DNA from: a virus
Taxonomy: Duplodnaviria; Caudoviricetes
DNA: 64,000 bases
Strand: one strand, 5' to 3'
Virus record (IMG/VR): IMGVR_UViG_3300032285_001531
Notes under the pieces: model-generated
Told to the model about the DNA's origin: nothing
Seen by the model: the letters and a program-made list of their open reading frames with translations, nothing else
The model's database searches: none
Part shown: positions 5,661-63,876 of the stretch, in pieces
Layout of the letters: every line of letters starts with the position of its first letter
Position numbering within the stretch: the stretch's first letter is position 1
Position numbers and translations under genes: made by a program

Positions 5661-5678
5661 TGTTATAATAACATTATG
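5661..5678 (+). promoter_or_regulatory. Extended -10 promoter placed for leaderless mRNA (representative copy)
   Basis: TG-T-TATAAT-N6-ATG; same geometry at 8138, 12899, 19149 and 61081. Confidence 0.75.
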
Positions 5679-8140: not shown

Positions 8141-8152
8141 TATAATAACAAC

Positions 8153-11652: not shown

Positions 11653-12007
11653 TACTACGTCTTTTGGTTTTCTTTTTACTTAATTCGCTGATGCTACATA
11701 TTGGTCCATGAATTATATCTAAGCTCTTATTATTAAAAGTCCTTAAATAGGGCTTGAAAGTAATCCATTCTTCTTTTAAGAACATATTGATTGGAATTAG
11801 TCTGTTTGATTCCCACCACCAAACTTCACCTAATTCTAGGAACTTCTCTTTTAATTGGGGCTGAATAATAGAACCATAGTCGTATATTGTAGTTACGATG
11901 TCATCACGGTTTTGGATGATTCCCACATAGTCCTGTCCCGAATAGGAGCAGACTGTTATGAATGGGTGATTCTCTGATAGTCGTTTGAAAAACTCGTTAT
12001 GTATCAT
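11627..12007 (-). CDS. Conserved hypothetical protein
   Basis: 126-aa ORF with its own late-type ATAAATA upstream on the minus strand; convergent 26-bp overlap with the DnaE-like gene. Confidence 0.7.
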   Translation of the reverse strand: MIHNEFFKRLSENHPFITVCSYSGQDYVGIIQNRDDIVTTIYDYGSIIQPQLKEKFLELGEVWWWESNRLIPINMFLKEEWITFKPYLRTFNNKSLDIIHGPICSISELSKKKTKRRSITLVRRMP

Positions 12008-12865: not shown

Positions 12866-12913
12866 ACTACCAAACTGTTACTATTTTGACATTGTATATG
12901 TTATAATTATAAC

Positions 12914-19127: not shown

Positions 19128-19163
19128 CTTGTAGCATGTTTGACAACATGTTATAATAATTGC

Positions 19164-19908: not shown

Positions 19909-22900
19909 ATGGCAATAATACAACTTTCCAAAATTCAACACCGTACAGGGGCTAACGTAGATTTGCCCCAACTAGCTGAGGGCGAATTAGGTTTCGCCAC
20001 AGACGAGCGTAGACTTTACATAGGTAATGACGCAAATCTGTTTCCCCCTTTAGGGACTAGTACTACTACTCAGACTGAGATACTCACAGAGGTTTCTACT
20101 CTGAATTGGTCAAGACTGGGTGGTTCTGCAAATACAACATTAAACATAGAGGCCCCTGTAGAAGATGGGCAGTTAATTGTTGCTAATTCAAATACATGGA
20201 CTAATGCAGGTGGTACTTCAGCTTTGCCTATCAATTTAGGTAATATTCAAAATCTTAATATCGGTGGTGGTTTAAATGGATATGTACTTACAACTGACGG
20301 CTCAGGTAATCTAAGCTGGCAGGGTAGCGGTGTTGTGACATATGCTGTTGCTAATGTTTCACAAGCTAATCCTGCAGTCGTAACAACTACTGAAGATAAT
20401 GCAATCTTAACTGGATTGCAAGTTACAATCTTTGGTGTTGGTGGTATGACCCAGCTAAAGACAGCCGGTGCAAGTGGCACAAACAAATTCTATGTAGTAA
20501 AACAATCTAACAGTACATTCACCCTGTACTCGGACAGTACATTATTATCAGCAGTTAACAGTTCGGCATTTACTGCAGCAGTTCCTAATACAGGTAATGC
20601 AGTCACATCATTCTATGAAAACGGCACAGGTAATCCAGGTGGTGGAAATAGAAATATTCAATTCAATGATGGTTCTGGATTATTTGGTGGTATTGGTACT
20701 TTTACATTTGATAAAACTACTTCTAATTTAAGTTTAACCGGTAATGCAAACATAACATATGATATTGCTGCAAATAATTTCATAGGTAAGTTTACAGGAC
20801 CAATAGGAAACACAACAGCCAATACAGGTAACTTTACGACTATCAATGCTGCTTCTACTATTAGCACTTCAGGAAATGTTTCTGCAGGTGGTAATGTAGT
20901 AGTCACTGGAAATATAAGCACAGGTAGTAATTTAACAACAGCAGGCAATTTAAGTGTAACAGGTAATACTAAGTTAACAGGTAAATTGTCAATGGGTGGT
21001 AATATAGTAGGCAATTTAGTACCAGATGCTGACATCACTTATAATTTAGGTAGTCCAACAAGACGTTGGAAAGATTTATACATATCAAGTAACTCACTCG
21101 TTATTGGTAATGGTACATTATCTACTAGTCCTACTGGTGACTTTAATTTTTCAAACTCAAACATAACAACATTAAATGCTAATTTAGGTAATCTAGCAAC
21201 TGCTAATTTCTTAGGCGGCACACTAATTGCATCATCAAGTTCACAACCTAACATATCAACTGTTGGTAATCTAACAAGTTTGAATGTTGCTGGTATAAGT
21301 AATTTAGGTCCAGTAAACAATGTGTTTATTGGCAACTCTACTGCAAATTATGTATTAACTGCTACTGATGCAAATGGAACCATGCGTTGGTTACCAACCC
21401 AGTATATTGAAACTCCTGCTAAAGGCTCAAATCAAAGCGTACAGTTTAATGTAGGTAATGTAATTTCTGGCAGTGCTAATTTCTTATTTGATAAAGATTT
21501 TAATAAATTAACAGTTCCTAACCTTGTTGTCGGAACAACAATTAACGGCAATGCCACTATTAGTGTTACTGGTAATATAACTGGTAATGCCATTAACGCA
21601 ACTACACTTAATGTTAGTGGTGCTGTAATCGCATCAAACACAGTTAGTGCTGCAGGCAATCTTACATCAAACGGTATACTTACTGTTAATAACAATGCAG
21701 CTATCACTGGTAATTTAAGTTTAACTGGAACCATTACTGCTAATCTTACAAATGCAGGCAATGTAAGTGTATCAGGTAATACAACTACTTCACGTTTATC
21801 TGTAGTATCTAATGTAGTTGCTAACGGTAATATTACTGGTGGTAATATATTAACATTGGGTAGTATATCTGCTGGTGGTAATGTAGATGCAAATAATCTA
21901 AATGCAGCAGGCAATGTCATCATTACTGGACAAGCAAACGCAGTGCGTTTTGTAGCTAGTGCAGAAATTAAAGCTGGTCAATATATTCAAGCTGCTGGTA
22001 AAGCATATATCGGTGAAGATGTATTAGCAAATGGTAATGTTTCTGGTGCTAATATTTTAACTTTAGGTAATGTTTCAGCAGGTGGAAACTTAACTATAGC
22101 AGCAAATGCACAAATCAACGGTAATGCTACTATTACTGGCACTATTGCTGGTGGTAATATTACTACTCTTGGCTTAATCAGTGCAAGAGGTAATATCAAT
22201 GGTGCTAATATTACTGCTAATGGATTTATCACCACAACAGGTGATGTAACAGCAAATGGTGCAATATCAGCAAATGGTAATATTACTAGTTTAGGAACAA
22301 TAACAGCTAACGCATTGAACGTTGGTAATGTATCAACAACTGGTAATTTAACAGTCAACAATCTTGCTGTAGCAAACTTTGTAAGTTCATCATTACTACC
22401 AAATGCAGATATTTCTCTTGCATTGGGTGGCCCAACTAAACGTTGGTCAACATTATATGTTGGCAACACAATCAATATTGGTGATAAGACTATTGTTTCA
22501 GATGCAAATGGTATTGGATTTGGTGCTGCATTATTCAATCAAGCTAATGCAAATATTGCTAACTTAAGAACAGCATATGCAAATCTACCAGATACCGGTA
22601 ATATCAAGATACCAGGTGGTACTTTAGGTGCAATTCTTAAAACAGACGGTAATGGTAATATAAGTTGGGGAGCACCTAGTAGCTTTGTATCTGGTGCAGC
22701 CGGGTCAAACACACAAGTTCAGTTTAACGATGCTAATATAATGGCTGGTAGTGCGAACTTTGTATTCAACAAAACAAGTAACACATTAACAGTAGATAAG
22801 ATCATTGCAAATGGTAGTGGTCTAACAGGAATGAATGGTGCAAATGTAACAGGCACAGTAAGTTCTGCTAGTGTAGCAGGAACAGTATCAGTAAATGCAC

Positions 22901-25900
22901 AACCAAATATTAATAGTGTTGGTAATCTAACAGGTCTAGTGGTAGGTAATTTAGGTAATGTTGATTTCAGTAATACAACTGCAGTAACTTTAAACAGTAA
23001 TAGTCTACGAGTTCCAAATGGTTGGACTCCTGGAATGTCAATCATTGCTGTTAGTCCAACCGCTAATAGTAATGCAGACGCAGGAAAATTAAGTTGGGGT
23101 TATTCATCTCTATTACAAAATGGCAATAGTAATGTAGTTGTTGATACTGCTGCAAATATTCGTTTTACTGCCAACGGTGTAGTTAACGTAGTTACTATCG
23201 CAAACACTGGATTATTCACTTCAAATCTAACAGTTAATGCAATTGCTAATTTAGGCTCAGTTAGTAATGTAAAAATTACTGGTGGTGGACCAAATCAAAT
23301 ATTAAGAACAGATGGTAACGGTGTGTTAAGTTGGGTAGCTCCTGCAAGTACTAGTGCATTAGCAAATGCAAATAGTAACATAACAGTTGAAGCCGCAAAT
23401 ATAAATCTATCAGCAAATGGCACACCTAACGTATTACAAGTAACTGCAACCGGTGTTAATATATCTAATGAAACAATATCTGGTACTTCTAATATCGGTA
23501 CATTAAATATAAATGCTATTGCTAATCTTGGTGCAGTTGCTAATATAAGAATTGGAGGTAGTAATGTAGGATGGTTACTGCAATCAAATGGTGCTGGTGG
23601 AGTTGTTTGGACACCGCCAGCAAGTACAAGTGGCTTAACAAATGGTAACAGTAGCGTTTCTGTTGATCAAAACGGTAATATAAGAATAACTGCAAACACT
23701 GCACCTAATGTAGTTGTCATTGCAAATACAGGGCTTTTCACAAGTAATATTTCAGCGACAGGTACATTAACAACAAATGGTATCGCTGTACTAAACAACG
23801 GTAACATAACACTACCGGGTACTGCTAGTACTGCAGGTAAAATATATTGGCCAGGCACTGCTGCTTGCTCAGCACCACAACTTACTACATATTCAGGTGG
23901 TACACGATTAGTATTACAAGACTCTATTGCTACTAGTGGTTCTGCAGGATACACAATGGGTATTGAATCTGGTAATATGTGGTTTGGTACTGATGTAGTT
24001 GCAGCAGGATTTAAATGGTATGGTGGCATAACTCAAATTGCGACATTAAGTAACGCAACTGGATTTAGTACAGTTGGCAATGTTGCCGGTATTAACATTA
24101 ATACAACAGGTAATGTAAGCGCAACAGGTAATGCTAATATTGGTAATAATGTAAACACTGTTAATGTTAATGCAACCGGTAGTATAATAGCAGCTAATAT
24201 CACTGCTAATACAGTCATAAGCACAACTGGTAATATTAACTCAGGCAATGAGAATGTAACCGGTAATGTACAAGCAGGTAACTTAAGAACAACAGGTAAT
24301 GTAAGCGCAACAGGTAACATCACAACTGCAAACTTCTTTGTAGGTAATGGTTATTACTTGACAGGTGTATTAAGAGAACCAACAGCATTAATTGCTAATG
24401 GTACTTTAAGTAATGTCAGCATTCCAGCTGCTAATGGCTCCATCTCAGTAGTAGCAAATAACGTAAGTGTTATGACTATTACTAGTGTTGGTGCAAATAT
24501 CAGTGGTAATGCAAGTATTTCAGGTAATGCTAACGTAGGTAACTTAGGAACTGCGGGTAATGTTACAGCAAATTACTTTATTGGTAATGGTGCATTATTA
24601 ACAGGCATTGCAACAAGCAATCAATTGTTTAATGGAAATAGTAACGTAACTATTGATTCAAATGCTAACGTAAGAATTACTGCAAATGGATCAGCAAACA
24701 TCGTAAGTTACATTGGTAATGGTGTATATCCTGCAAATGCTAACATAGGAGCAATTCAGCCGCAAAATACTTATTATCGTGTTGGTAATGTATATGTATC
24801 ATCTGGTGGCGATTACGGACATTTCTCTACTCATGCATGGTACACTGGCGGTATGTGGATGGGTGATGGTGCAGTTGGCGGATTATTCCAAATAGCAGGA
24901 CCTACATTTAATTGGTTCAAAGGTTCTGCATGTACAAGTGTCACATACACTAGTTTGATGTCACTTGATGCTAATGGAAATTTATTCGCAAATGGTACTA
25001 TATCATCAGTAAGCAATATAACCGGTGTTAATATAATTGGTACTAATATAAGTGCCACAGCTAATGTAACTGGTGGTAATATCATAACTGCTGGTGCAGT
25101 AAGTGCTACTGGTGTAATAAGTACTGCTGGTAATATTGTAAGTAACAGCTATCACTTCTTAAATTCATATGCTGGCGCCACTGAAGGTGGTCAGATTGTT
25201 ATGTCGTTTGCTGGTGGTAACGCTTATGCTAATGCAGTAGCTTCAACATGGAACATAGATGTTGGTCCTGCAAATGACTTCCGTATATTCAATTATAACT
25301 CGGGTGGTGCGGTATCAATTCCATTCATAATTCGTCAATCAAATAATCAAGCAGATTTCACTGGAAATATTGCTACTGGTGCTAATGTTAATGCAGGCAA
25401 TGTTAATACTACCGCTGCAGTATCAGCAGGTGGTAATATTACTACAACACAGTTCTTAAATGCTGGTAGTATGAGTGTTTCTGGCACTATTAATGGTGGC
25501 GCAAATGCTAACATAGCAGGTAATTTAAATCTAACAGGTAATGCAAATGTAATAGGTAAGATAAATGTATCCAATAGCATTAGTATGGCTAATGGCTCTC
25601 TGAACATAATTAATTGGGGTACTGCTGGTTATGCACCGCCTAGTATTGTAGCAGCTTATGGAAATGGCACAAAAATTGTATTGTTTGACAGTAAAACATC
25701 AACTGCTACTGCTCTTGGCTACACAATGGGTATTGATACAAGTACATTCTACTTTACCAGTGATGTAAACTTTAAATGGTATACTAATGGCTCACTAACA
25801 CCAGTAGCAACAATGACTCCTACAGGATTCAGTGTCACTGGCACAGTTAATGCATCCAACTTTGTTGGTAACGGATCTGGTCTTACTGGTATTTCAGCAT

Positions 25901-28900
25901 CAAATGCACTTAGTTTGGTAAACGGTTCAAGTAATGTTGTAGTTGACGTAAATGGTGCAATAAGAATTGGTGCAATAGGTGTGCCTAATGTGTTGACCAT
26001 CACAAACACAGGCACAGTAGTGACAGGTACAGAAAGCGTAACTGGTGCTATTACTGCTAATGGTGCAATTACAACGGCAACAACTTTAACTGCAGCTAAT
26101 TTGAGTATTACTGGAAATGTAGCATTTACTGCTGCAAACGTAAGTTTAGGATCTAATACTGCTGTTAGAATTACTGGTGGGGGTCCTAATCAATTCTTAA
26201 AAACAGATGGAAACGGTAATTTAAGTTGGGTTTCTGCAGGTGGTACTGCAAACGTTGCAGGTGCACCAACTCAAGTACAGTTTAACACTGGCGGTGCAAT
26301 GGATGCTAGTGCTAACTTTACATTTGATAAAACAACTAATACATTAGTAGTCACTAATGCTACAAATTCAGGTAACTTAAGCGTAGGCGGTAATGCAACT
26401 GTAGCAGCTAACTTAAGTGTTACTACAGGCAATATCAGTGCTAGTGGTAACGTTAGCTTAATTGGCAATAACGTAACTGGTAAACTAGTGTTTAACAATA
26501 ATGGTGTTGCAGCTCCGATATTAAATGGTGTAAGTAATGGTACTAGAACAATTTTCTATAATTCAGCAGGAGCTCAAGCTACTAACTTTGCAATGGGTAT
26601 AGATAGTAGCACATTATGGTACAGTGTTCCGGATACAGCTAGTTTCCACAGATGGTACGGTGGAACAACTCAGCTTGCATATCTAACTGGAATTGGATTC
26701 TCTGTAACAGGTAACATATTTGCTAGTGCTAATATTAGTACTATTGGCAATATTCTTGCTGCAGGTTTACTCAGTGTTACTGGAACAATTTCAAGTACTG
26801 GTGCTATTGCTACCCCAAGTACAATCAGTGCTACAGGTAATATTAATACTACAGCTACACTAAATGCAGCAGCATTGTCTGTAACTGGAGCAGCAATTTA
26901 CGGTGGTGTAATTAACACAACAAGCACAATGAGTGCTACTGGTACAGTAACGGCAGGTGGATTTATCACTGCAGGTACAATTAGTGCTAATGGTACTATT
27001 ACATCAAATACTGCAATTAACACTACAGGTACTATAAGTGCTACTGGTAACATTACTACTGCTGGTTACATACAAGCTGCAGGTCTTGCTTCTAGCGGTA
27101 ACATGGCAATCCCAGCAGGTAATTCATTATTGATGGGAACAAATGCTGGCACATCAGCTAAGATAATATGGGATGCAGCTGGGACAGGAGCACCAACATA
27201 TAGTGCATTTAGTCCAGGTACAAAATTAGTATTGTATCCTGCAACTGCTGCGCCATACACACCAAGTGCAAGTGAGGTTGGATATGCAATGGGTATTGAA
27301 GCCTACTCAATATGGTATAGTACAAGCAATTCTACAGTTGGTTTCCATAGATGGTATGCAGGTAATACACAAATTGCAAACTTAAACTATCAATCATTTA
27401 CTGTAGCAGGAAATTTAAGTGCAGTTGGTAATGTTTATTCAAATAACGAAAACGTAACAAGTAATGTACAAGCAGGTAACTTAAGAACAACAGGTGTAGT
27501 ATCTGCAGCAAGTACAATAACCGGTGGCAATTTAGTAACAGGAGGCACAATAAGTTCATATGGTATTGCAACATTAGGTAATGTTGTTGTACCAACAGGC
27601 GGTACTATATCTGCAATCGGCAATATCATTGGTGGTAATATAGTAGCAAATGCAACTGTCACTGGTGTAACATTAAGTGCTAGTGGTAACGTAACAGGCT
27701 TTAACTTAACAACTGGCGGTGTAGTGAGTGCTGCTAGTAACGTAACCGGTGGTAATATCTTAACTGGTGGTTTAATAAGTGCTGCAGGTAGTGTTACAGG
27801 TATAAGTCTTGTTGGTAATCTATACACAGTTCGTAACGGTGGTATTTACTGGCCTAGTGATACTAGTGGTGACGTTGCAACTATCACTTATCTAAGATCA
27901 GGCGCTGATACTGGTACCCTAGAACTTTCTGTACAAAATGATACAGACGATATTATTAGATTAAATGCAAGTGGTGGTACATCAGTTGTTGGTAATTTAA
28001 CAGTTGGTGCTAACATAACAACAACTGCAAATGCTAACGTAGGTAATTTAAATGCAACAAGTAATGTACAAGCAGGTAACTTAAGAACAACTGGATTAAT
28101 AAGTGCTACTGGTAATGTAACAGCTAGTAATTTTATCACAACTGGCACGATAACTTTAGGTGGTGTCATCAGTGCTACTGGTACCCCAGCTGCTATCGCT
28201 GCTACTGGTACAATTAACACTTTAAGTACAATTAGTGCTACTGGCACAATTACTGGTGGTAATATTGTAACCGCAGGCGCAGTCAGTGCAACAGGTATAA
28301 TCAGTACTACAGCTAATATTACTACTGCAGCTAATATTAGTGCTACTGCAGGAATATTTGCTAGTACAATTAGTGCTGTTGGTAATATCAACAGTACAGG
28401 TAACATTATAACTAATGGTACAATATGTACTATAGGATTGATAGTAAGTGCAGGTGCAAGTGCTAACTTTGCCTCTCCGATATATGCAACATCATTAATT
28501 AGTACTACTGCAACAGTTACTAGTGCTGTTTTAAGTGCTACAGGAAATGTAAATGCTGCTAATGTAATATCTACTGGTAATGTAAATGCTGGTACTAACA
28601 TAAGTGCTACTGGTAATATTACTTCTGCAGCAAACATAAGTACTAGTGGTAATATTATTGCTGCTGGCACAATGAGTTCTACTGGATTAGCGACACATGG
28701 TAGTTTAAGTGTCGTTGGTAGTTCTACTCATACTGGTGCAATCAATACAACTAATGCTATTAGTGCTGTTGGTACGGTTACTGCAGGTGGATTCAGTACT
28801 ACAGGAAATACTATTACTGGTAATTTAAGCGTTACTGGTAACGTAATTGGTACATTAACTGTTCCTGGTACTGCAAATATTGGTACTGCAAATGTAACTA

Positions 28901-29355
28901 CTTTAAATGTATCTGGTGCTGCTAATGTAAGTCCAAGTTCAGTTGTAAGAGATCCTGCTAATGCAGCAATAAATATTCCAGTTGGATATCGTATAAATCC
29001 ACTAATTCCCGTAACAATGGCATCTGGAACTATTGCCAGTGTTTTATACGATAATAACGCTACACAAAAAATATTTTATGTCACTGGTGCAACCGTAGCT
29101 ACTGGTGTAATTAATTGGGAAGGCAGCGGATCTTTCGAACGTTTTGCTCTTGGTTCAGTTATAACTATTATCAATGATAGTTCAGGAACAGTACAAGCTT
29201 CTGGCTCCTATGCTGGATGTAATTTTAGACGAGCGCAAACCGGAGCTACAACAAATACTATTAATGTTGGACCTAATGGTTATGCAGTATTTACTAAGAT
29301 TGTATCTGTTGGACCAGGCGGATATCCATTATGGTTCGTGTCAGGTAATTTCTAA
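19909..29355 (+). CDS. Giant tail fibre (3148 aa)
   Basis: Mtd_N-like N-terminus (KIQHRTG...LPQLAEGELGFATDERRLYIGN); N/G/T/A/S-rich triple-beta repeats; repeated TQVQFN and TDGxGNLSW junctions. Confidence 0.85.
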   Translation: MAIIQLSKIQHRTGANVDLPQLAEGELGFATDERRLYIGNDANLFPPLGTSTTTQTEILTEVSTLNWSRLGGSANTTLNIEAPVEDGQLIVANSNTWTNAGGTSALPINLGNIQNLNIGGGLNGYVLTTDGSGNLSWQGSGVVTYAVANVSQANPAVVTTTEDNAILTGLQVTIFGVGGMTQLKTAGASGTNKFYVVKQSNSTFTLYSDSTLLSAVNSSAFTAAVPNTGNAVTSFYENGTGNPGGGNRNIQFNDGSGLFGGIGTFTFDKTTSNLSLTGNANITYDIAANNFIGKFTGPIGNTTANTGNFTTINAASTISTSGNVSAGGNVVVTGNISTGSNLTTAGNLSVTGNTKLTGKLSMGGNIVGNLVPDADITYNLGSPTRRWKDLYISSNSLVIGNGTLSTSPTGDFNFSNSNITTLNANLGNLATANFLGGTLIASSSSQPNISTVGNLTSLNVAGISNLGPVNNVFIGNSTANYVLTATDANGTMRWLPTQYIETPAKGSNQSVQFNVGNVISGSANFLFDKDFNKLTVPNLVVGTTINGNATISVTGNITGNAINATTLNVSGAVIASNTVSAAGNLTSNGILTVNNNAAITGNLSLTGTITANLTNAGNVSVSGNTTTSRLSVVSNVVANGNITGGNILTLGSISAGGNVDANNLNAAGNVIITGQANAVRFVASAEIKAGQYIQAAGKAYIGEDVLANGNVSGANILTLGNVSAGGNLTIAANAQINGNATITGTIAGGNITTLGLISARGNINGANITANGFITTTGDVTANGAISANGNITSLGTITANALNVGNVSTTGNLTVNNLAVANFVSSSLLPNADISLALGGPTKRWSTLYVGNTINIGDKTIVSDANGIGFGAALFNQANANIANLRTAYANLPDTGNIKIPGGTLGAILKTDGNGNISWGAPSSFVSGAAGSNTQVQFNDANIMAGSANFVFNKTSNTLTVDKIIANGSGLTGMNGANVTGTVSSASVAGTVSVNAQPNINSVGNLTGLVVGNLGNVDFSNTTAVTLNSNSLRVPNGWTPGMSIIAVSPTANSNADAGKLSWGYSSLLQNGNSNVVVDTAANIRFTANGVVNVVTIANTGLFTSNLTVNAIANLGSVSNVKITGGGPNQILRTDGNGVLSWVAPASTSALANANSNITVEAANINLSANGTPNVLQVTATGVNISNETISGTSNIGTLNINAIANLGAVANIRIGGSNVGWLLQSNGAGGVVWTPPASTSGLTNGNSSVSVDQNGNIRITANTAPNVVVIANTGLFTSNISATGTLTTNGIAVLNNGNITLPGTASTAGKIYWPGTAACSAPQLTTYSGGTRLVLQDSIATSGSAGYTMGIESGNMWFGTDVVAAGFKWYGGITQIATLSNATGFSTVGNVAGININTTGNVSATGNANIGNNVNTVNVNATGSIIAANITANTVISTTGNINSGNENVTGNVQAGNLRTTGNVSATGNITTANFFVGNGYYLTGVLREPTALIANGTLSNVSIPAANGSISVVANNVSVMTITSVGANISGNASISGNANVGNLGTAGNVTANYFIGNGALLTGIATSNQLFNGNSNVTIDSNANVRITANGSANIVSYIGNGVYPANANIGAIQPQNTYYRVGNVYVSSGGDYGHFSTHAWYTGGMWMGDGAVGGLFQIAGPTFNWFKGSACTSVTYTSLMSLDANGNLFANGTISSVSNITGVNIIGTNISATANVTGGNIITAGAVSATGVISTAGNIVSNSYHFLNSYAGATEGGQIVMSFAGGNAYANAVASTWNIDVGPANDFRIFNYNSGGAVSIPFIIRQSNNQADFTGNIATGANVNAGNVNTTAAVSAGGNITTTQFLNAGSMSVSGTINGGANANIAGNLNLTGNANVIGKINVSNSISMANGSLNIINWGTAGYAPPSIVAAYGNGTKIVLFDSKTSTATALGYTMGIDTSTFYFTSDVNFKWYTNGSLTPVATMTPTGFSVTGTVNASNFVGNGSGLTGISASNALSLVNGSSNVVVDVNGAIRIGAIGVPNVLTITNTGTVVTGTESVTGAITANGAITTATTLTAANLSITGNVAFTAANVSLGSNTAVRITGGGPNQFLKTDGNGNLSWVSAGGTANVAGAPTQVQFNTGGAMDASANFTFDKTTNTLVVTNATNSGNLSVGGNATVAANLSVTTGNISASGNVSLIGNNVTGKLVFNNNGVAAPILNGVSNGTRTIFYNSAGAQATNFAMGIDSSTLWYSVPDTASFHRWYGGTTQLAYLTGIGFSVTGNIFASANISTIGNILAAGLLSVTGTISSTGAIATPSTISATGNINTTATLNAAALSVTGAAIYGGVINTTSTMSATGTVTAGGFITAGTISANGTITSNTAINTTGTISATGNITTAGYIQAAGLASSGNMAIPAGNSLLMGTNAGTSAKIIWDAAGTGAPTYSAFSPGTKLVLYPATAAPYTPSASEVGYAMGIEAYSIWYSTSNSTVGFHRWYAGNTQIANLNYQSFTVAGNLSAVGNVYSNNENVTSNVQAGNLRTTGVVSAASTITGGNLVTGGTISSYGIATLGNVVVPTGGTISAIGNIIGGNIVANATVTGVTLSASGNVTGFNLTTGGVVSAASNVTGGNILTGGLISAAGSVTGISLVGNLYTVRNGGIYWPSDTSGDVATITYLRSGADTGTLELSVQNDTDDIIRLNASGGTSVVGNLTVGANITTTANANVGNLNATSNVQAGNLRTTGLISATGNVTASNFITTGTITLGGVISATGTPAAIAATGTINTLSTISATGTITGGNIVTAGAVSATGIISTTANITTAANISATAGIFASTISAVGNINSTGNIITNGTICTIGLIVSAGASANFASPIYATSLISTTATVTSAVLSATGNVNAANVISTGNVNAGTNISATGNITSAANISTSGNIIAAGTMSSTGLATHGSLSVVGSSTHTGAINTTNAISAVGTVTAGGFSTTGNTITGNLSVTGNVIGTLTVPGTANIGTANVTTLNVSGAANVSPSSVVRDPANAAINIPVGYRINPLIPVTMASGTIASVLYDNNATQKIFYVTGATVATGVINWEGSGSFERFALGSVITIINDSSGTVQASGSYAGCNFRRAQTGATTNTINVGPNGYAVFTKIVSVGPGGYPLWFVSGNF
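27456..28091 (+). repeat. Dispersed exact DNA repeat in the giant fibre
   Basis: AACAAGTAATGTACAAGCAGGTAACTTAAGAACAAC at 27456-27491 and 28056-28091; a third copy at 24263-24297 matches 27461-27495. Confidence 0.85.
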
Positions 29356-50247: not shown

Positions 50248-53200
50248 ATGGCTCAAGAGAATATTGATTTTGGTGCTTACCCCAACGATCCAGATGCAGA
50301 TGCAATTAGAGTAGCGTTCCAAAAAGTACAGAATAATTTTAGCGAAATATATTCAACTGCACTGACTACAGGTGTTGATCAGGTAATTGCAGGGACAGGT
50401 ATATTAGTAGACCAAAACATTGGAAATGTAACGGTCACCGCACGTATCCCACAAATTACTATACAAACAGGTGACAGTTTAAAAATTGGTGTCAGCGCAG
50501 CCACCACAAATACTGCTACAATTACATCAGGAAGCACTCCATTTGTAATTACACTAGCAAACACAATTAACACAATAAACATTGTTGCTACAGGCAATTT
50601 AGTTGGTACCTTAGCAGCAAATGCAAGTTCACAGCCAAACATAACTTCAGTAGGAACATTAGCTAATCTAAGTGTATCTGGAAATATCAATGCTCAAAAC
50701 CTAATAGGAAATGTAGTAGCAACAAATTTATCTGCTACAAATATTGGTATAGCAGGGGCCAATACACAATTATTATATAACTATCAAGGCAATATAAGAT
50801 CCGCTAGTGGATTAACTTTTGATAATGCAAATCTAACTGTTGCAAATAGAGTACAAGCTGGTAACTTAAGTGTTACTGGTAATTCTAATGTTAACATAGT
50901 ACGTGCTAATTATCTATATGGTGACGGTAGTAATTTAACTAATGTTAACATTGCAACTGCTGGTACATTAAGTGTACCTAATTTAATAGCTAGTGGTAAT
51001 CTAGTAGGTACATTAGCAGCTAATGCAAGTTCACAACCAAACATCACAACTGTTGGTGTACTATCAAGTTTAAGTGTAACAGGTACATCTAATTTAGCTA
51101 ACGTCAATGCAGGTAATATAAGTGCAACTGGTAATGCTAATGTAGGTATATTACGTGCAACTTATCTTTATGGTGATGGTAGTAATTTAACTAATTTAAG
51201 TACACCTACATCATTCAGTGCAGGTAATGTAAGCGTAAGTGGTAATATAACTGGTCGTTTATCTGCTGCTTCTGCATTACAACCAAACATCACAACTGTT
51301 GGTACATTATCTAATTTATCAGTTGCAGGCACCGTAGTAGTACCAAATGTATCTGCTACGTATATATCAGCATCAGGCAACATTTCAGCACCTGGTACTA
51401 ACACTCAAGTAGTATTCAATAATCAAGGTAACTTAGCCGGCAGTACAAATCTTGTATTTACAGGTTCAAATTTAAATGTTGCTGCAAATTTAAATGCAAC
51501 AGGAAATATAAGTGGTAATAATGCAACATTAGCAGGTAGATTAAATGCAACAGGAAACATAAGTGCTGCAGGAAATATTAGTACAGCAAGTAACTTAAAT
51601 GTATCAGGGAATGCAGCTATAACAGGTACTGCAACTATATCAGGTAATGCAGTTGTAACAGGTAAAGTAACAGCAGGCACAATATCTTCAATAGGTAACA
51701 TTGACTCAGGTGGTAACTTGAATGCTAACAGTGTTACACTATCAGGTGAAGCCAATGCTAATATAGTACGTGCTGTATATCTATACGGTGATGGTAGTAA
51801 CATCAGTAACGTTGGCACAGTTGTTCCTCGTAACGAAATTACTAGAGGTGCTGGGTATGTATCATTAGACATCAACGGTTATATTCATGGCGGTGATAGC
51901 GTTAACGGTGATCAATTTATAGTCAAAGCTGGTAATGGATTACAAGCTCTTAATAAATTCTCTATTACAGATGGAACTGCAAATTATTTCTCATCAAATA
52001 CAACTGATGCTAGTTTTGATTTAGGGCAAAATTTTGAAGGTTCAACCTTCACGGTTGAATGTCAGGACAATGTAGGAGCACAATTACAAATATCTGCTCC
52101 TGCAGGTGGAGTAGGAAATAGTCAAGCATGGTTAGGTGCTAATACAGTAATTATAGCTGGTACTGGCACTGCTAACGCTAAACTAAGCTCAATTAATTTA
52201 ACAGGTAGTACAATCTCTGTTGTTGGTAATTTAGTAATGAATAGCAGTCCAGCAAGTTCAACTAATAATACACAAGTTGCTACTACTGCGTTTGTACAAA
52301 CATTAGTGGGTACTAAAGCTAACTTAGCTAGTCCTATATTCAGTGGAACTCCAACTGCACCAACTGCAGCCAATGGAACAAATAACACACAAATCGCTAC
52401 CACACAATTCGTAGCAAATGCTATAGCAGCAGGCGCTGGTGCTGGTGGCGGAACATTTATAGCAAACGGTAATAGCAACGTAAGTACAAGTAGTAACGGC
52501 AACATTAAAATATCATTGGGTGACGGTAATAATAGCAACTCAACCTTTGCTATTAGTTTAAACGATGGTACCGGTGTAAATCAAATTAGGATTAACAGCG
52601 GTAACGGTAATGCTGGAAATATGAATTCAAATATTACAACTATTGCTACAAATTATAGTATGCAGATAGTTGGAGGTGGATATGCAAATGGTAGTTCACT
52701 ACTCATGCGTCCTGATCAATTTACTGTTACTCATTTGCAGCAAATTCGTATGTCTGCACCTACTACTAATATGTTTTCGCCGCTTACATACATTTCTGGT
52801 AATTTAGTTATTACTTCTGGATCTCCTGGAATTACCCTACAAGCAGACGCTGCCGTAGCTAATTTAACAGGTGCAAACAGTAAGATTTTCTTAAGTGGTG
52901 CTATACCAGCTAATGCATCAAACACAATGGTACCAACTACTGCATGGGTAACAGGCTATACACAAACAGCTATTGCAGGGGCAATATCAAATGCAGTAAC
53001 ATCAAACAATTTTGTATTAACAAAAATAGGTCCTGCTAGTGGTACAAATACAGGTTCTATTGTTAATAATGACACATTAGCAACCACTCTAAACTATGCT
53101 AATATGTATTTCCCTGTAGTATTAGGTACACAAGACTTTACTTTTGAAGGTTGGTTTAAGTATACATCAATTGGTGCAACTAATGGAACACTATTTGGCT

Positions 53201-56200
53201 TAGGCGGTGGCGCCGGTGAGATAATAGTTAAAATAGTAGGTACTACTCTTAATCTTGTTATATTCAGTGCTACTGCTTCTCTTGGGACAGCACCAGCGAC
53301 AAACACTTGGTTTCACGTTGCCGTGTCAAAAAATGCAGGTACTATTAGAGTATTTGCTAACGGCATAGCTGTTTATACTAGTGCTAGTTACAGTGCAACT
53401 TCTCTTGGTAGTGATATGGTATTGGGGCAACAGCTATATACCGCTGGTACATACTTTAATGGATTAATTACTAATGTACGTTTTGTTGCTGGCACAGGCG
53501 TATACTCAAGCAACTTCACACCACCTACTAGTGCATTAACTGCTATATCTGGTACTACACTATTATTGTTAACACAAAATCTAGCAACTGTTAACTTTGA
53601 TAATAGCGGAAACTATAGATTTAATAATATGTTCCAAAGTAACTTTGGATATAATACTGATTCACCTATTACAACTCAAACAAATACACTTACTGTAACA
53701 TCTCCAATAACATTACCAGCAAGTTATACAATGCGTCTACCTGGTAATTTAGGTAGCAATGGTCAAGTATTAAGCACAGATGGTACAGGTAACTTAAATT
53801 GGATTACCGCAAGTGGCGGTAGTGGTGGAACTGGTAATTTAATTACTAGCGGAGGAATCGCTACTGTAGCTACAAGTTCAGTAAGCGGTGTAGGATTTGT
53901 TAAGACTACAATTAGTAATGCTGACATTATAACTACCACTGCAGTATCTACTGTATTCAACAATGGTAACGTGGGCATAGGTGTACCGGGTAATCCTACA
54001 GCAAGATTAGACATAGCCGGAATACAAGGTTCATTAACTGAAGCTAGAATTAGATCACTTGATGATAGAATGGCTAGAGTGTCATTAGTCAATACAGTAC
54101 GCAACTGGTCAATATCTAATTATGGAAATCAATTTGCTCCTAATGGTCAATTCGCAATTGCAGATGAAACACAAGGTGCAGTAAGATTTGCAATTGATGT
54201 ATTAGGTAATGTAACTGTTACTAGTAATTTAATAGTATCTGGTATAACATCATTGGGTGCTAACAGTAATGTTAAAATTACAGGTGGTACAACTGGTCAA
54301 GTATTAAGTACAGATGGCACAGGCAATCTGAGTTGGATAACTGCAACAGGCGGTGGCGGTGCAACTACAACAATTAGTAATGCAAATAGTATTGTTAGTA
54401 CATTTGCATATGGTCAAGTATCTGTATCTACAGGTGCATTACAAACAATATTCAGTAATGCAGGAGTTGGTATTGGAACTAATTCACCTACTAGTGTTAC
54501 TGGAGCAACAAGTGTTACTATCAATGGCGGTGCAAACGGTGGTAGAGTTGATTTATTAAAGAGCGGAACTCAGTTTGGTGCAATATACAGTGCTGCAGCT
54601 AATTTATTAGATATTGAAGCAATTGGTACAAATACAGCAATTCGTCTAAACACAAACGGTGCTGAACGTATGCGTATTGATCCTAACGGTAACGTTGGTA
54701 TTGGCACTACTACTCCTTCTTATAAATTAGACATAACTGCTGGTACATTAGGAACAACTGCTGGAAGTACAGTTTCATATCAACGCTTAGTTTCATTTGA
54801 TACAAATGCCGATTATCTTGAAATAACAAATACTAGGCAAACTGCTGGATCGTCTTGGGTTGGGGCTGGATCAAGACTGCAACAAAAAGTAGATGCTACA
54901 TGGATGGCGTATATACAATTTAATGGTGGAGCAGGTACAACAAATGATGGTGGTATTTCTTTTGGAACTGGAACTACCACAGTAAATTCCACATCAATAT
55001 TGGAACGTATGCGTATTGATGCATCTGGCAATGTGGGTATCGGAACAACTACTCCGGCAGCAAAATTAGATGTCAATGGCACAGTAAATATTAGTGGTAA
55101 TACTGCTATAGCAGGCAATGCAACTATCACCGGTAATACTACTATAACAGGTAATGTAACTCACTCTAGTATATCAAAATTGGGTCCTGTAGGTAATGTT
55201 CAAATCACAGGTGGTTCATCTGGTCAAGTATTAAGTACAGATGGCACAGGTAATCTAAGTTGGGTAGCACAATCAGGTGGCGGTGGAGGATCTTCATCAT
55301 ATAATGGATTTAAGAATCGCCTCATCAACGGTGCATTTAATGTTTGGCAACGTGGTACAAGCTTTAATATTAGTACAAACGGAGGATATACTGCTGATAG
55401 ATGGTTCCTATTTAATCCTATTCCTATGACATTTAGTCAGTCAACTGATGTGCCTCAAGGATTTGTATATAGTGCTAAAGCAGGTAGAGCAGCAGGTCAA
55501 GCATCTGGTAATTATTTATATATAGGACAAAATATTGAATATGCCAGTTTTTCGGATTTAGTAGGACAACCTATTACGGTTAGCTTCTGGGCAAAGAAAG
55601 GTGCAAACTTTAGCGGTACATCATTGAATAGTGAGATTTATACTGGTACGTCACTGGATCAAGGTGGTAATGCCGGTATACAAGGGCTTTGGGTTGGTTC
55701 AGTTTCTAATTCGGTTAATATAGCAATTACAAATACATGGGCAAAGTATAGTTACACTTATACATTACCAGCAAACGCTAAATCACTTGTATTAGATTTT
55801 GGATATACATGCTCAGGTACTGCAGGTGCAGATGATAATTTCTATATTACAGGAATACAATTTGAAGCAGGTAGTACAGCAACTTCTTATGATGCTATAT
55901 CACCTTCAGAGGCGTTATCACGCTGTCAGAGATTCTATTGCAAGAATAGTAATACTGATGTTGTAGCTACTCATGGCAGTCCATATACAACTACTGGAAT
56001 GTTTAGTTCAGGAACGATAGGAGCGTATGGTGCTAATGCAGGTTACATTCAGTGGATACCTTTCCCAGTGTCAATGTTTAGAGCACCAAATTTTGGTGGC
56101 GATATTAAATTTATCAATCCTGGTAGTTTAACATCAGGTGCTATCACAGTAGGGCAGTGGATGGTGTATAACGCAGGAACTTGGGCAAGTTCAACTACTT

Positions 56201-56310
56201 TAGCAGTCCAGTCTGTTACTACAAATGGCATGGGATTAAATATAGGTGGAACATTCCCTGCAGGAACATCACTATGGTACGGGGCATGGACTGTATCTGC
56301 AGACTTATAA
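50248..56310 (+). CDS. Long tail fibre/baseplate-attached fibre (2020 aa)
   Basis: N-terminus DPDADAIRVAFQKVQNNFSEIY is T4 gp9/gp10-like. It has QVATTAFVQ and NVGIGTTTP repeats, a LamG-like insert (DFTFEGWF...WFHVAVSK...FNGLITNVRF) and a FKNRLINGAFNVWQRG CBM-like domain. Confidence 0.85.
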   Translation: MAQENIDFGAYPNDPDADAIRVAFQKVQNNFSEIYSTALTTGVDQVIAGTGILVDQNIGNVTVTARIPQITIQTGDSLKIGVSAATTNTATITSGSTPFVITLANTINTINIVATGNLVGTLAANASSQPNITSVGTLANLSVSGNINAQNLIGNVVATNLSATNIGIAGANTQLLYNYQGNIRSASGLTFDNANLTVANRVQAGNLSVTGNSNVNIVRANYLYGDGSNLTNVNIATAGTLSVPNLIASGNLVGTLAANASSQPNITTVGVLSSLSVTGTSNLANVNAGNISATGNANVGILRATYLYGDGSNLTNLSTPTSFSAGNVSVSGNITGRLSAASALQPNITTVGTLSNLSVAGTVVVPNVSATYISASGNISAPGTNTQVVFNNQGNLAGSTNLVFTGSNLNVAANLNATGNISGNNATLAGRLNATGNISAAGNISTASNLNVSGNAAITGTATISGNAVVTGKVTAGTISSIGNIDSGGNLNANSVTLSGEANANIVRAVYLYGDGSNISNVGTVVPRNEITRGAGYVSLDINGYIHGGDSVNGDQFIVKAGNGLQALNKFSITDGTANYFSSNTTDASFDLGQNFEGSTFTVECQDNVGAQLQISAPAGGVGNSQAWLGANTVIIAGTGTANAKLSSINLTGSTISVVGNLVMNSSPASSTNNTQVATTAFVQTLVGTKANLASPIFSGTPTAPTAANGTNNTQIATTQFVANAIAAGAGAGGGTFIANGNSNVSTSSNGNIKISLGDGNNSNSTFAISLNDGTGVNQIRINSGNGNAGNMNSNITTIATNYSMQIVGGGYANGSSLLMRPDQFTVTHLQQIRMSAPTTNMFSPLTYISGNLVITSGSPGITLQADAAVANLTGANSKIFLSGAIPANASNTMVPTTAWVTGYTQTAIAGAISNAVTSNNFVLTKIGPASGTNTGSIVNNDTLATTLNYANMYFPVVLGTQDFTFEGWFKYTSIGATNGTLFGLGGGAGEIIVKIVGTTLNLVIFSATASLGTAPATNTWFHVAVSKNAGTIRVFANGIAVYTSASYSATSLGSDMVLGQQLYTAGTYFNGLITNVRFVAGTGVYSSNFTPPTSALTAISGTTLLLLTQNLATVNFDNSGNYRFNNMFQSNFGYNTDSPITTQTNTLTVTSPITLPASYTMRLPGNLGSNGQVLSTDGTGNLNWITASGGSGGTGNLITSGGIATVATSSVSGVGFVKTTISNADIITTTAVSTVFNNGNVGIGVPGNPTARLDIAGIQGSLTEARIRSLDDRMARVSLVNTVRNWSISNYGNQFAPNGQFAIADETQGAVRFAIDVLGNVTVTSNLIVSGITSLGANSNVKITGGTTGQVLSTDGTGNLSWITATGGGGATTTISNANSIVSTFAYGQVSVSTGALQTIFSNAGVGIGTNSPTSVTGATSVTINGGANGGRVDLLKSGTQFGAIYSAAANLLDIEAIGTNTAIRLNTNGAERMRIDPNGNVGIGTTTPSYKLDITAGTLGTTAGSTVSYQRLVSFDTNADYLEITNTRQTAGSSWVGAGSRLQQKVDATWMAYIQFNGGAGTTNDGGISFGTGTTTVNSTSILERMRIDASGNVGIGTTTPAAKLDVNGTVNISGNTAIAGNATITGNTTITGNVTHSSISKLGPVGNVQITGGSSGQVLSTDGTGNLSWVAQSGGGGGSSSYNGFKNRLINGAFNVWQRGTSFNISTNGGYTADRWFLFNPIPMTFSQSTDVPQGFVYSAKAGRAAGQASGNYLYIGQNIEYASFSDLVGQPITVSFWAKKGANFSGTSLNSEIYTGTSLDQGGNAGIQGLWVGSVSNSVNIAITNTWAKYSYTYTLPANAKSLVLDFGYTCSGTAGADDNFYITGIQFEAGSTATSYDAISPSEALSRCQRFYCKNSNTDVVATHGSPYTTTGMFSSGTIGAYGANAGYIQWIPFPVSMFRAPNFGGDIKFINPGSLTSGAITVGQWMVYNAGTWASSTTLAVQSVTTNGMGLNIGGTFPAGTSLWYGAWTVSADL

Positions 56311-60445: not shown

Positions 60446-61065
60446 CAGCAAGAATTAGCAAAAGCTTTGTGTTCCAGTCAGGCGTTTATTTTAACGATTC
60501 ATTTATAATGAACGTATATGACGTAGAAATGCATTTTAACATACACACCGAAAATATACGTGAACAAAATATTTCACTAGAAAGAGTTAAATTCTTTATA
60601 CGAGAGAATATAGAAAGTGCTGTATTTGTTGAAGAAAAAAATAAAACAGTAATAGATAGTTTTGTTGATGCAGGTATTAAAGTATGTGCATTACCAGAAG
60701 AACCTTATGACCAAATTATAGGTATTATGTTGTTGTGTAAATTAAATGCTATTATGGAAGATAGAATGGAATTATCTGACATCTCAATCACTAGTTGGAT
60801 GAGCGATGGTGTAACATGTAATCATTCAATTGATGAAAGCATGGGACCATTTGTTGATAGTGGATGGTGGAATGACAATACTCCAAGAGCATATGTTTCT
60901 AAGTCAAATGCAACCAAATCTAAGAAATTGGTTAAACTAGTTAAGTCTATGTATTCATGGGATGAAGTTTATTTGGGTTGGGGAGAGAATATAGAACCGA
61001 CAAACACCTTTAATAGTGAAGTAGTATTTGCTTGTTTTGACAAAAAGGTTGACAAAAAAGATTGA
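60442..61065 (+). CDS. Degenerate T-fold (QueD/PTPS-like) protein
   Basis: Segment order matches QueD (ISKSFVF ~ LFKDFTF, EPYDQII ~ NPTSEVL, LSDISIT ~ LSAVMVK), but the His/Cys catalytic residues are absent. Confidence 0.45.
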   Translation: MTARISKSFVFQSGVYFNDSFIMNVYDVEMHFNIHTENIREQNISLERVKFFIRENIESAVFVEEKNKTVIDSFVDAGIKVCALPEEPYDQIIGIMLLCKLNAIMEDRMELSDISITSWMSDGVTCNHSIDESMGPFVDSGWWNDNTPRAYVSKSNATKSKKLVKLVKSMYSWDEVYLGWGENIEPTNTFNSEVVFACFDKKVDKKD

Positions 61066-61095
61066 CTTATCTAGTTTTTATGTTATACTAGTAAA

Positions 61096-61602
61096 ATGAG
61101 AACAGATATATATGGTCAACAAATATTCACAGAAAACGAAGTATGTGAGATATATCTAACCAATCCCGATATTAAAATACAATCTATCCTAGTAGACACT
61201 ACAGTCACAATTGATGACGCACTAGAGTTAGAGAGTACACCTGATATTCGCACATATATTGATCAAAAAATATCATTAGCAGAATTTGATTTAAACAATC
61301 AAAATAAATGGTTCATCCCAAATAGTTACAAATCATTGGACATAGCACAGTTTGTGTTAGACCAATGCAAAAGCGAAGCAGAACTACAACGAGCAGGTTC
61401 TGAATTGCTATTATTCCAAGAACGTAACTTATTCCCATTATTGTGTTACTTGAAATATTTGGTAGATACGATGAGAGATAATAATATAGTTTGGGGAGTA
61501 GGCAGGGGTAGTAGTGTTGCCAGCTTTGTATTATTTCTTTTGGGAGTACATAGGATAAATAGTTTATACTATGACTTGAGCATAGAAGAATTTCTAAAAT
61601 AG
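61096..61602 (+). CDS. dnaE: Miniature DNA polymerase III alpha-like protein, N-terminal half of the catalytic core
   Basis: NIVWGVGRGSSVASFVLFLLGVHRINSLYYDLSIEEFLK ~ DnaE [36 protein letters not shown]. Confidence 0.8.
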   Translation: MRTDIYGQQIFTENEVCEIYLTNPDIKIQSILVDTTVTIDDALELESTPDIRTYIDQKISLAEFDLNNQNKWFIPNSYKSLDIAQFVLDQCKSEAELQRAGSELLLFQERNLFPLLCYLKYLVDTMRDNNIVWGVGRGSSVASFVLFLLGVHRINSLYYDLSIEEFLK

Positions 61603-61969: not shown

Positions 61970-62332
61970 ATGACAGAATACGCCTTTCAACCTCACAAAG
62001 TAAGTGAATTAACAGCATTGCATGACACTATAATAGTCAGTGACATGTCCTTTGATTCACGTATAACATCTAGCGGTATTATACTTCCGGGTGATGATAC
62101 AAAATTAGCGGGAATTAGACCTAGATGGTGTAAAGTATATGCAGTAGGTCCTGAACAAACTTCAGTTCAGCCTGGGCAATATATTTTAGTTGCACATGGA
62201 CGTTGGACTAGGGGTGTTAAGATAGAAGATGACGAGGGTGAGAAAACTATTCGTAAAGTAGATCCTGAAGAAATACTTATGGTTAGTGATGAACCCATTA
62301 CTGATGACACAATGAGTGATAAGGTTATATAA
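61970..62332 (+). CDS. groES: GroES-like co-chaperonin
   Basis: LTALHDTIIV, mobile loop TSSGIILP, KVYAVGP, VQPGQYILV. Confidence 0.82.
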   Translation: MTEYAFQPHKVSELTALHDTIIVSDMSFDSRITSSGIILPGDDTKLAGIRPRWCKVYAVGPEQTSVQPGQYILVAHGRWTRGVKIEDDEGEKTIRKVDPEEILMVSDEPITDDTMSDKVI

Positions 62333-62682
62333 TGAAATGGTTTAAAAAATGGATGTTTAGAATGTTTCAAGAGGGCAGAGATATTATTGAAGAAGAAATT
62401 TATAGTGTTTCTGATAATAATGTTCCTGAACGAATACGTAGAGGCATTAATAAATCTAAAGGAATTCATGGAATAACAGCAGCATCAGATCATAGTCCTA
62501 GCACACCTAGTATTAACTTTCAAATCTATCCTGCAACAGGTGGATATGTAGCAGAGATTACTTATTACGATGAAAAGTCGGATAGTACTATTCGTTCCCT
62601 GCATGTTATTCCAACTACAGACTTTTCTGAACTAGGTTCTAGTATCAGTAAAATCATTACAATTGAGATGTTAAAGCGATGA
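62332..62682 (+). CDS. Hypothetical protein
   Basis: Packed in the operon; INFQIYPATGGYVAE beta motif. Confidence 0.65.
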   Translation: MKWFKKWMFRMFQEGRDIIEEEIYSVSDNNVPERIRRGINKSKGIHGITAASDHSPSTPSINFQIYPATGGYVAEITYYDEKSDSTIRSLHVIPTTDFSELGSSISKIITIEMLKR

Positions 62683-63605
62683 AAAATTCTTTATGGGTTG
62701 AAAAATATCGTCCGAATAAAGTAGAAGATTATGTATTCGTTAACGATGCACAAAAGAATCAAGTGTTGGGCTGGATTAAAGATGGTTCAATCCCTCACTT
62801 ATTACTCAGTGGTGATCCAGGTACAGGTAAAACTACACTAGCAAAAGTATTGATTAATGAGTTAGGTGTTAGTGAATATGATGTATTAGAAATCAATGCA
62901 TCACGTGAAAACAGTGTTGACACAGTTCGTAATAAGATACTAGGCTTTGCACAAACAATGCCTTTCGGCACATTTAAGATTGTGTTACTTGATGAGGCTG
63001 ATTATCTAACTCCGGCAGGTCAAGCAGCATTACGTAGTGATATGGAAGCATATCATGAAACTTGTAGATTTATTCTTACTTGTAATTATGAATATCGTAT
63101 CATTCCTGCACTACGTGAGAGTCGTTGCTATAAGTTTCATATCGCTAAGCCAGATCAAGCAGAGTTTACAGCACGTGCAGCAACCGTATTGATTACTGAG
63201 CAAATAGAATTTGATATTGATATATTGGATAGTTATGTTCGCACAACCTATCCTGATTTACGTAAATGTTTAAATCAATTACAAGTAAACAGTGCATCAG
63301 GGTCATTAGTTTCTCCGATTGAAGAAACATCAAGCGAAGATAGTTTGTTAATTGCAGCAACTGACCAATTCAAAGCAGGTAAGATTCTTGAGGGTAGACA
63401 AGAATTAATGCAATACTTAGAAATGCATCCTACAAAACTAGAGGATATATATCGCTGGATGTATAATAACTTAGACTTATGGGGTAAATCAAATGAAACA
63501 CGAGATGCAGCTATCGTTAAAATACGTGACGGTTTAGTTAATCTTTCATTAGTAGGTATTCCAGAAATCAGTCTAGCAGCAACATTAGTGGAGTTAACAA
63601 GTTGA
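62679..63605 (+). CDS. gp44: Clamp loader large ATPase subunit (gp44/RFC-like)
   Basis: LWVEKYRP, GDPGTGKTT, LEINAS, LLDEAD, FILTCNY, SRC. Confidence 0.92.
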   Translation: MKNSLWVEKYRPNKVEDYVFVNDAQKNQVLGWIKDGSIPHLLLSGDPGTGKTTLAKVLINELGVSEYDVLEINASRENSVDTVRNKILGFAQTMPFGTFKIVLLDEADYLTPAGQAALRSDMEAYHETCRFILTCNYEYRIIPALRESRCYKFHIAKPDQAEFTARAATVLITEQIEFDIDILDSYVRTTYPDLRKCLNQLQVNSASGSLVSPIEETSSEDSLLIAATDQFKAGKILEGRQELMQYLEMHPTKLEDIYRWMYNNLDLWGKSNETRDAAIVKIRDGLVNLSLVGIPEISLAATLVELTS

Positions 63606-63862
63606 GATATTTTTTAATCACATTCAAAAGAAAAGCCGGCGGGCAAATTGACGAAGAAGTCAGCATAGCACGTAATCTAAAACCCAATGACATTACTATG
63701 TGTAATGTTATTATGGACTTTAAACAAAGGAAAGTAGAACGTTGCTTTATTGAAGGTAAGGTACTAGATACTGATTGGGATAAGCTACGTGAATACTATC
63801 ACAAAGTATACCCTACAATAATAGAAAATTTAGATAATGCAAACAGAGTAGAAGGGGAATAA
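63602..63862 (+). CDS. Hypothetical protein
   Basis: Overlaps the gp44 stop; 86 aa. Confidence 0.6.
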   Translation: MRYFLITFKRKAGGQIDEEVSIARNLKPNDITMCNVIMDFKQRKVERCFIEGKVLDTDWDKLREYYHKVYPTIIENLDNANRVEGE

Positions 63863-63876
63863 TCCCCTTCTTTTTA
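63851..63876. terminator. Hairpin between convergent genes, probable terminator
   Basis: GAAGGGGA-ATAA-TCCCCTTC followed by a T-run. Confidence 0.75.

Follow-up and report, generated by a model that had tools for sequence, protein, structure and literature searches.

A putative two-chain, minimal DNA polymerase III alpha-like core encoded by distant genes in an uncultured lineage of jumbo phages

In DnaE, the catalytic subunit of DNA polymerase III (Pol III), the GS motif (GxGRGS) binds the triphosphate group of an incoming dNTP, and contacts with template and primer are made by two motifs of the fingers, RPG and FxKxH. A DnaE protein can be encoded in two pieces: in the cyanobacteria Synechocystis and Nostoc each half has one part of an intein, and protein trans-splicing joins the two into the full-length protein. 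A different kind of split, a mini Pol III in jumbo phages of group 2.2, has been published from sequence by Iyer, Anantharaman, Krishnan, Burroughs and Aravind (2021, Viruses 13:63; PMC7824862, section 3.4.1 and Fig. 3b), who propose an ancestrally unfused state of Pol III; PA5oct, 121Q/PBECO4, Atu_ph07, SCTP-2 and RsoM2USA are examples of phages that have it. The published system is that of gp23-type jumbo myophages that use sigma factors and also have a family B polymerase. We analysed a 64-kb stretch of phage DNA (the window) that encodes a further, uncultured member of this already described system. As in the account of Iyer et al., there is an N-terminal unit for binding NTP and a C-terminal one for Mg and template, with the same break between them; the two proteins match phrog_11127 and phrog_11778 end to end, and related phages have a family B polymerase, a UvsW-like helicase and a clamp loader. 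Unlike the cultured examples, the clade of the window has a leaderless-type promoter at the N-half gene and an exonuclease gene that overlaps the C-half gene. In that paper's treatment of the split polymerase we did not find the linkage to clamp-loader subunits or the contiguous RsoM2USA cluster that we describe below. We regard the clamp-loader linkage and the leaderless-type promoters as modest additions to the published system.

The window comes from a T4-like jumbo phage, and its genes include those for a gp32-like SSB, UvsX, a UvsW-like helicase, a primase, DnaB, the tail sheath and tube, and a clamp loader. Of these, the SSB, UvsX, UvsW-like helicase, DnaB and tail sheath are typical of group 2.2 jumbo phages. 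The structural region also contains giant ORFs, at 19909-29355 (+ strand, 3148 aa) and 50248-56310 (+ strand, 2020 aa). A megablast search found no nucleotide match to the region among 50,697 phage records, and the window is only 35-48% identical to the cultured phages that have the split Pol III; it belongs to a large uncultured clade. The N-half protein is recorded on a contig of 349,679 bp. We found no family B polymerase within the 64-kb window. Each of the five large related genomes that we checked has both halves and, beside them, a family B polymerase of 825-1010 codons. The features of the two loci are listed in Table 1.

Table 1. Features of the two split-polymerase loci, in order along the window.
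Feature	Position	Strand	Product	Details
Sigma-70-type promoter of ORF 8153	8118-8146	+		TTGAAA-17-TG-n-TATAAT; ends 6 nt before ATG
Probable gp62-like clamp-loader small subunit	8653-9243	+	196 aa	Basis: fold and synteny in RsoM2USA
Phage-specific protein with C2H2-type zinc-finger pattern	9221-9913	+	230 aa	phrog_11058; N-terminal C-x2-C-x12-H-x5-H
Rv2179c-like 3'-5' exonuclease	10529-11074	+	181 aa	PF16473, E 1e-33
C half of split mini Pol III alpha	11071-11652	+	193 aa	Basis: phrog, fold and motifs
Sigma-70-type promoter of N half	61062-61089	+		TTGACT-16-TG-n-TATACT; ends 6 nt before ATG
N half of split mini Pol III alpha	61096-61602	+	168 aa	Basis: Pfam, phrog, phmmer and hhalign
GroES/gp31-like protein	61970-62332	+	120 aa	PF00166 (Cpn10), E 1e-5; phrog_931 'head morphogenesis'
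gp44/RFC-like AAA+ clamp-loader large subunit	62679-63605	+	308 aa	phrog_168, E 6e-73
Bidirectional terminator-like hairpin	63850-63871	.		Closes the unit N half, clamp loader, ORF 63602

Several searches relate the N half to DnaE. The protein matches the Pfam family PF07733 (DNA_pol3_alpha) with E = 2.7e-9, above the curated gathering cut-off, with profile positions 19-94 aligned to residues 92-167, and phrog_11127 ('DNA polymerase', 171 positions) covers it end to end (E = 2e-38). In a phmmer search against PDB, residues 101-167 align to residues 326-392 of E. coli DnaE, and a 38-sequence profile aligned by hhalign matches residues 98-168 to DnaE 323-393 (probability 90%, E = 1.5e-6). This alignment places K168, the last residue of the N half, on N393 of the DnaE segment FERFLN, so a sequence-only reading of the window, which had proposed that the protein aligns with the segment ending in FERFLN, was right on this point; the C-terminus of the ORF is exactly the peptide that it had quoted. 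The GVGRGS motif falls inside the matching region, and G134, G136, R137, G138 and S139 are invariant in all 38 N-half sequences, down to 35% identity. The phmmer alignment puts a glutamate of the phage protein opposite R390 of E. coli DnaE, and therefore the dNTP pocket is not identical. Neither Pfam nor profile alignment to DnaE detected a DnaE counterpart of residues 1-97, the residues that precede the palm match, and no PHP domain was matched in the N half by Pfam or hhalign. These 97 residues (61096-61386) have a conserved motif of their own, EFD..Q..WF.P..Y...D, in which P75 is invariant and W72, Y78 and D82 are nearly so.

The C half, whose protein begins MNFDIDIDF, is covered end to end by phrog_11778 (E = 7e-54) but reaches DnaE by sequence only weakly, yet colinearly. 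Searched alone against PDB with phmmer it gave chance matches only. A 13-sequence profile aligned its DIDID, RPG and FxKSHA motifs, in that order, with those of Mycobacterium tuberculosis DnaE1 at a sub-threshold E-value of 0.12, and hhalign aligned residues 32-140 to E. coli DnaE 508-642 (E = 0.0015, probability 17%). The motifs comprise DxDxD (D4, D6, D8), H35, K67/D69, the 'RPG' at R137-P138, and F165-K-K-x-H169; D4, D6, D8, H35, K67, D69, R137, P138, K166 and H169 are invariant. The 13 best Foldseek matches of an AlphaFold model of the C half, built from 31 sequences (pLDDT 87.4), are all Pol III alpha. When we looked a second time with VIA, the model aligned with C-family structures at Z = 8.4-8.9 over 181-188 of its 193 residues, and the top 12 rows are all C-family polymerases, followed by an unrelated row at Z = 3.4. 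Residues 1-191 of the model correspond to residues 399-781 of the E. coli enzyme, 460-841 of Taq, 418-811 of M. tuberculosis and 970-1296 of PolC. The C half thus covers the same stretch as DnaE 399-781 but lacks the inserts of the thumb and fingers, and its end falls at the equivalent of DnaE 781. A 126-aa gene that matches phrog_11637, a family with no annotated function, converges on the C-half gene from the minus strand (11627-12007) and overlaps its 3' end by 26 nt; this arrangement recurs in nearly all of 83 related loci and in Paride, Atu_ph07 and PBECO4, and is absent from the RsoM2USA locus.

Taken together, the two proteins have the features of a C-family palm and fingers, and it is only together that they have them. 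Like DnaE and PolC (PDB 2hnh, 2hpi, 3e0d, 5lew and 3f2b), the pair has a Pol-beta-like palm, a GS motif for binding the triphosphate, three catalytic carboxylates and, in the same order, RPG and FxKSH as motifs of the fingers. Unlike DnaE and PolC, which have 1100-1450 aa in one chain, it has 361 aa in two; it has no PHP domain, beta-clamp-binding motif, OB fold or tau-binding C-terminus, and the thumb and fingers are heavily trimmed, so that 193 residues span DnaE 399-781. By its motifs and model, the mini Pol III would work like a DnaE core without being a canonical DnaE. The N half stops at DnaE position 393 and the C half starts at about 396-399, which leaves only about five DnaE positions between them, in line with the earlier proposal that one protein stops a few residues before the other begins. 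The break is therefore inside the palm. It lies between the triphosphate-binding GS motif and the catalytic aspartates, and therefore neither half has a full active site. Like the cyanobacterial split DnaE, the phage system is a C-family catalytic subunit encoded by two genes that are far apart (50 kb in the window), but the phage halves have no intein, and their break is inside the palm whereas the cyanobacterial one is elsewhere.

The position of the break is highly conserved. In an exhaustive HMMER scan of 1.84 billion representatives with the N half as query, the best 150 hits, which are clusters at 50% identity, are all 95-222 aa long. Among the 142 of these diverged cluster representatives that have the EFLK motif, the N half ends exactly at the motif in 102 and no more than two residues away in 130. 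C halves start 0-15 residues ahead of DxDxD; for example, the RsoM2USA C half starts directly with MDIDID. Cultured phages of at least five genera have the same break as the roughly 150 clusters at 50% identity. At 90% identity there are about 8000 clusters of N halves and 5900 of C halves, with near-constant lengths of mostly 168 and 192-193 aa, respectively. We found no fused form: no C-half match is as long as 339 aa or longer, and in 80 IMG/VR loci the C-half reading frames have 187-236 codons with no N half within 3 kb. Both halves share a contig in a few assemblies only, the very long ones. Both genes are present in about 100 cultured jumbo phages, including the PA5oct group, relatives of Rak2, 121Q and PBECO4, Atu_ph07, Phosso, SCTP-2, RsoM2USA, XaC1 and a Vibrio phage, at distances from each other that vary widely (4.2 kb in RsoM2USA, 31 kb and 44 kb in others, and 182 kb in Atu_ph07). 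Comparison of the window genes with close metagenomic relatives by the Nei-Gojobori method gives a dN/dS of 0.08-0.20 (N half) and 0.06-0.13 (C half), similar to the neighbouring replication genes (0.02-0.15). The sequence-only reading had held that the split is long-standing and selected rather than a product of decay, and that variable breakpoints, relaxed selection or genomes with only one half would speak against it; none of these was seen in the data examined. As judged from the sequences, the split is real, ancient and under selection. To call it a 'fission' presumes a direction, and the ancestrally unfused state proposed by Iyer et al. is the alternative.

Both loci contain a clamp-loader gene. 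The assignment of a gp44-like subunit at 62679, made in the sequence-only reading, is borne out by its phrog match (Table 1). The companion claim of a gp62-like subunit at 8653 had a more mixed outcome: sequence searches gave it no support, and the evidence for it comes from the predicted fold and from gene order. ORF 8653 matches neither Pfam nor phrog_225, which T4 gp62 itself matches; its sole phrog is phrog_11758, which has no annotated function. Direct comparison with T4 gp62 was not significant (BLASTP E = 1.7; hhalign E = 0.25), and Foldseek with the ORF 8653 model returned nothing below E = 1. We aligned this model (pLDDT 76.5) exhaustively to 48,161 PDB representatives with VIA. The top-ranked structure among the 48,161 is 3u5z_A, the 186-residue gp62 chain of the T4 clamp loader (Z = 7.5, rmsd 2.2 Å over 76 residues), although at Z < 8 the fold alone is not conclusive. 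Residues 36-111 of gp62 align to residues 15-112 of the model, in the same register as in the hhalign alignment, and the next ranks are the collar domains of Rad24-RFC, CTF18-RFC, archaeal RFC and the bacterial gamma-complex. In RsoM2USA the homolog of ORF 8653 directly follows the gp44-like gene. On the basis of fold and synteny together, ORF 8653 is probably a gp62-like small subunit.

The gene order in T4 is also 44 and then 62. The likeness to T4 therefore has several parts: ORF 62679 is of the gp44/RFC AAA+ type, ORF 8653 contains a helical domain resembling a clamp-loader collar, for which gp62 is the best match in structure, and the adjacent gp44-like and gp62-like genes of RsoM2USA are in the T4 order. 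Unlike in T4, the two clamp-loader genes of the window are 53 kb apart, and unlike T4 gp62, ORF 8653 has no significant sequence similarity to gp62 and no phrog_225 match. In the Ralstonia phage RsoM2USA, the whole set forms one 5.3-kb cluster on a single strand (1297-6588), in the order N half, GroES-like gene, an extra 400-aa gene, gp44-like, gp62-like, C2H2 protein and C half. In the window and in most relatives, this set is cut between the gp44-like and gp62-like genes. The contiguous cluster could be either the undivided form of the two window loci or a secondary merger, and it hints that the polymerase and the clamp loader belong together. Other genes are retained alongside. In the loci of Paride, Atu_ph07 and RsoM2USA that we examined, the GroES-like gene is conserved in its place after the N half and before the clamp loader. 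Every relative examined has the C2H2 gene between those for the gp62-like protein and the C half, and its product may also belong to the module. We also considered the Rv2179c-like exonuclease, whose stop codon overlaps the start of the C half (ATGA), as a general third, proofreading subunit. Of 80 IMG/VR loci from the nearest uncultured clade, about 50 have it next to the C half, but it was not found in four of five other large genomes searched and in the fifth it is far from the C half. We therefore rejected this idea; the adjacency is specific to the nearest clade.

The two loci also share a type of promoter. ORF 8153 is the first gene of a tightly packed unit on one strand that runs through p166, the gp62-like gene, the C2H2 protein, small ORFs and the exonuclease and ends with the C half. 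Both ORF 8153 and the N half have a sigma-70-type promoter immediately upstream (Table 1), and there is no Shine-Dalgarno sequence ahead of the N-half ATG; many other ORFs of the window that we inspected have AGGAG-type ribosome-binding sites instead. The promoter patterns that we counted were defined after the sites had been seen: the full pattern has just these two matches in 64 kb, against 0.25 expected, and the shorter pattern TGnTATAMT-N6-ATG has five matches in the window against 0.34 expected, a number that none of 100 shuffled sequences reached. All five are on the + strand (5661-5678, 8138-8155, 12899-12916, 19149-19166 and 61081-61098) and all are at ORF starts (5676, 8153, 12914, which is the primase, 19164 and 61096). 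A second hairpin terminator, at 5605-5632, precedes the promoter at 5661. The ORF at 19140-19850 was listed from a TTG at 19140; an in-frame ATG at 19164 lies 6 nt after the TGTTATAAT box and is more likely to be the start than the TTG.

Among 17 distinct upstream regions of N-half genes from relatives with 42-95% identity, the arrangement TTGnnn-16/17-TAnnnT-6(8)-ATG is kept in 10, and in another four this promoter stands at a distance of 12 nt from the ATG. The regions are not alike in their spacers, and across all ATGs of the same loci the background rate is 1.2%. In Paride, of the PA5oct group, the N-half gene overlaps its upstream neighbor, so the leaderless-type promoter is clade-specific. 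These patterns predict leaderless mRNAs for a set of replication-module genes. The earlier claim that both operons start at the same leaderless-type promoter therefore has support at the sequence level, and leaderless co-expression of the two units would be a well-supported expectation. It is from the promoter type only that we infer co-regulation of the halves.

Four explanations for the two short genes can be weighed against these data. The first, that this contig shows decay, an artefact of assembly or a recent accident, has in its favor the bare fact of two short ORFs, and we found nothing more for it. The comparative data already refute it: thousands of N-half and C-half clusters and roughly 100 cultured phage genomes have the same break, dN/dS does not exceed 0.2, and both genes have clean starts and stops. 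Joining of the halves into a single chain, either after translation by a split intein as in cyanobacterial DnaE or at the RNA level, would have a precedent in that the cyanobacterial dnaE is likewise encoded as two distant genes. We consider it highly improbable. N halves mostly end 0-2 residues after EFLK and C halves start 3-5 residues before DxDxD or, in RsoM2USA, directly with it, and these short margins at both termini leave no room for the N part (about 100 aa) or the C part (about 35 aa) of an intein. Nor is any RNA context for joining conserved, given that the distance between the two genes varies among phages from 4 to 180 kb.

A more serious alternative, though one that we consider unlikely, is that the proteins are remnants of a DnaE core that have given up DNA polymerisation. 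They would then serve as a nucleotidyltransferase of another kind, as a nucleotide sensor, or as an adaptor with a structural role in the clamp loader or replisome. The extreme reduction in size (361 aa against about 1160) and the absence of the PHP, clamp-binding and OB domains fit this reading, as do the presence of a family B polymerase in the related phages checked and the lack of conservation at the R390 equivalent. We found no biochemical or genetic laboratory study of the split enzyme in the literature, and the PA5oct omics paper does not mention it. Against relics stands the invariance, across deep divergence, of all classes of residue that polymerase chemistry requires, among them GRGS, the three aspartates, the lysine beside the third of them, RPG and FxKxH; a protein that is not a polymerase would have no need of fingers motifs that contact template and primer. 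We favor the explanation, with a probability of roughly 80%, that ORF 61096-61602 is one of the two obligate subunits that make up a minimal nucleotidyltransferase of the C family (Pol III alpha-like) in group 2.2 jumbo phages, most likely an accessory polymerase beside a family B replicase.

In the two-chain enzyme, the N half would contribute the helix-loop with GxGRGS that holds the triphosphate of the incoming dNTP, and the C half would contribute the three metal-binding aspartates and the conserved lysine beside the third, together with a pared-down thumb and fingers bearing the RPG and FxKxH motifs. Because neither protein has a complete active site, the halves would have to associate non-covalently into one palm domain. 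The product would most likely be a second, accessory polymerase working alongside the family B replicase, a role that rests on the relatives. It would be coupled to the gp44/gp62-like clamp loader, which has one gene beside each half, and it may use the clamp. A bolder extension of the two-chain reading, which we think rather doubtful, is that the halves, both clamp-loader subunits (gp44-like and gp62-like), the GroES-like protein and the C2H2 protein are the descendants of one operon, still undivided in RsoM2USA, and make up a self-contained second polymerase holoenzyme coupled to the clamp loader. Its composite active site would form only when both leaderless units are expressed. Such an AND gate would control a polymerase for the lagging strand, for repair or for modified bases that works alongside the family B replicase. 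The split module could also serve as a model of the pre-fusion state of Pol III.

The window adds a further lineage to the published system, with quantitative evidence for the fixed break and for purifying selection, and it adds a link to two clamp-loader subunits and to leaderless-type promoters. The thousands of clusters at 90% identity in metagenomes imply that the enzyme is widespread. At 361 aa in two chains it would be by far the smallest C-family polymerase core, with a palm domain assembled from two polypeptides. If it is active, the mini Pol III defines the minimal catalytic unit of the bacterial replicase and offers a tractable model for the assembly or the reduction of Pol III in evolution. 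It also raises the question of what role a second polymerase has in a phage that already has a T4-type replicase.
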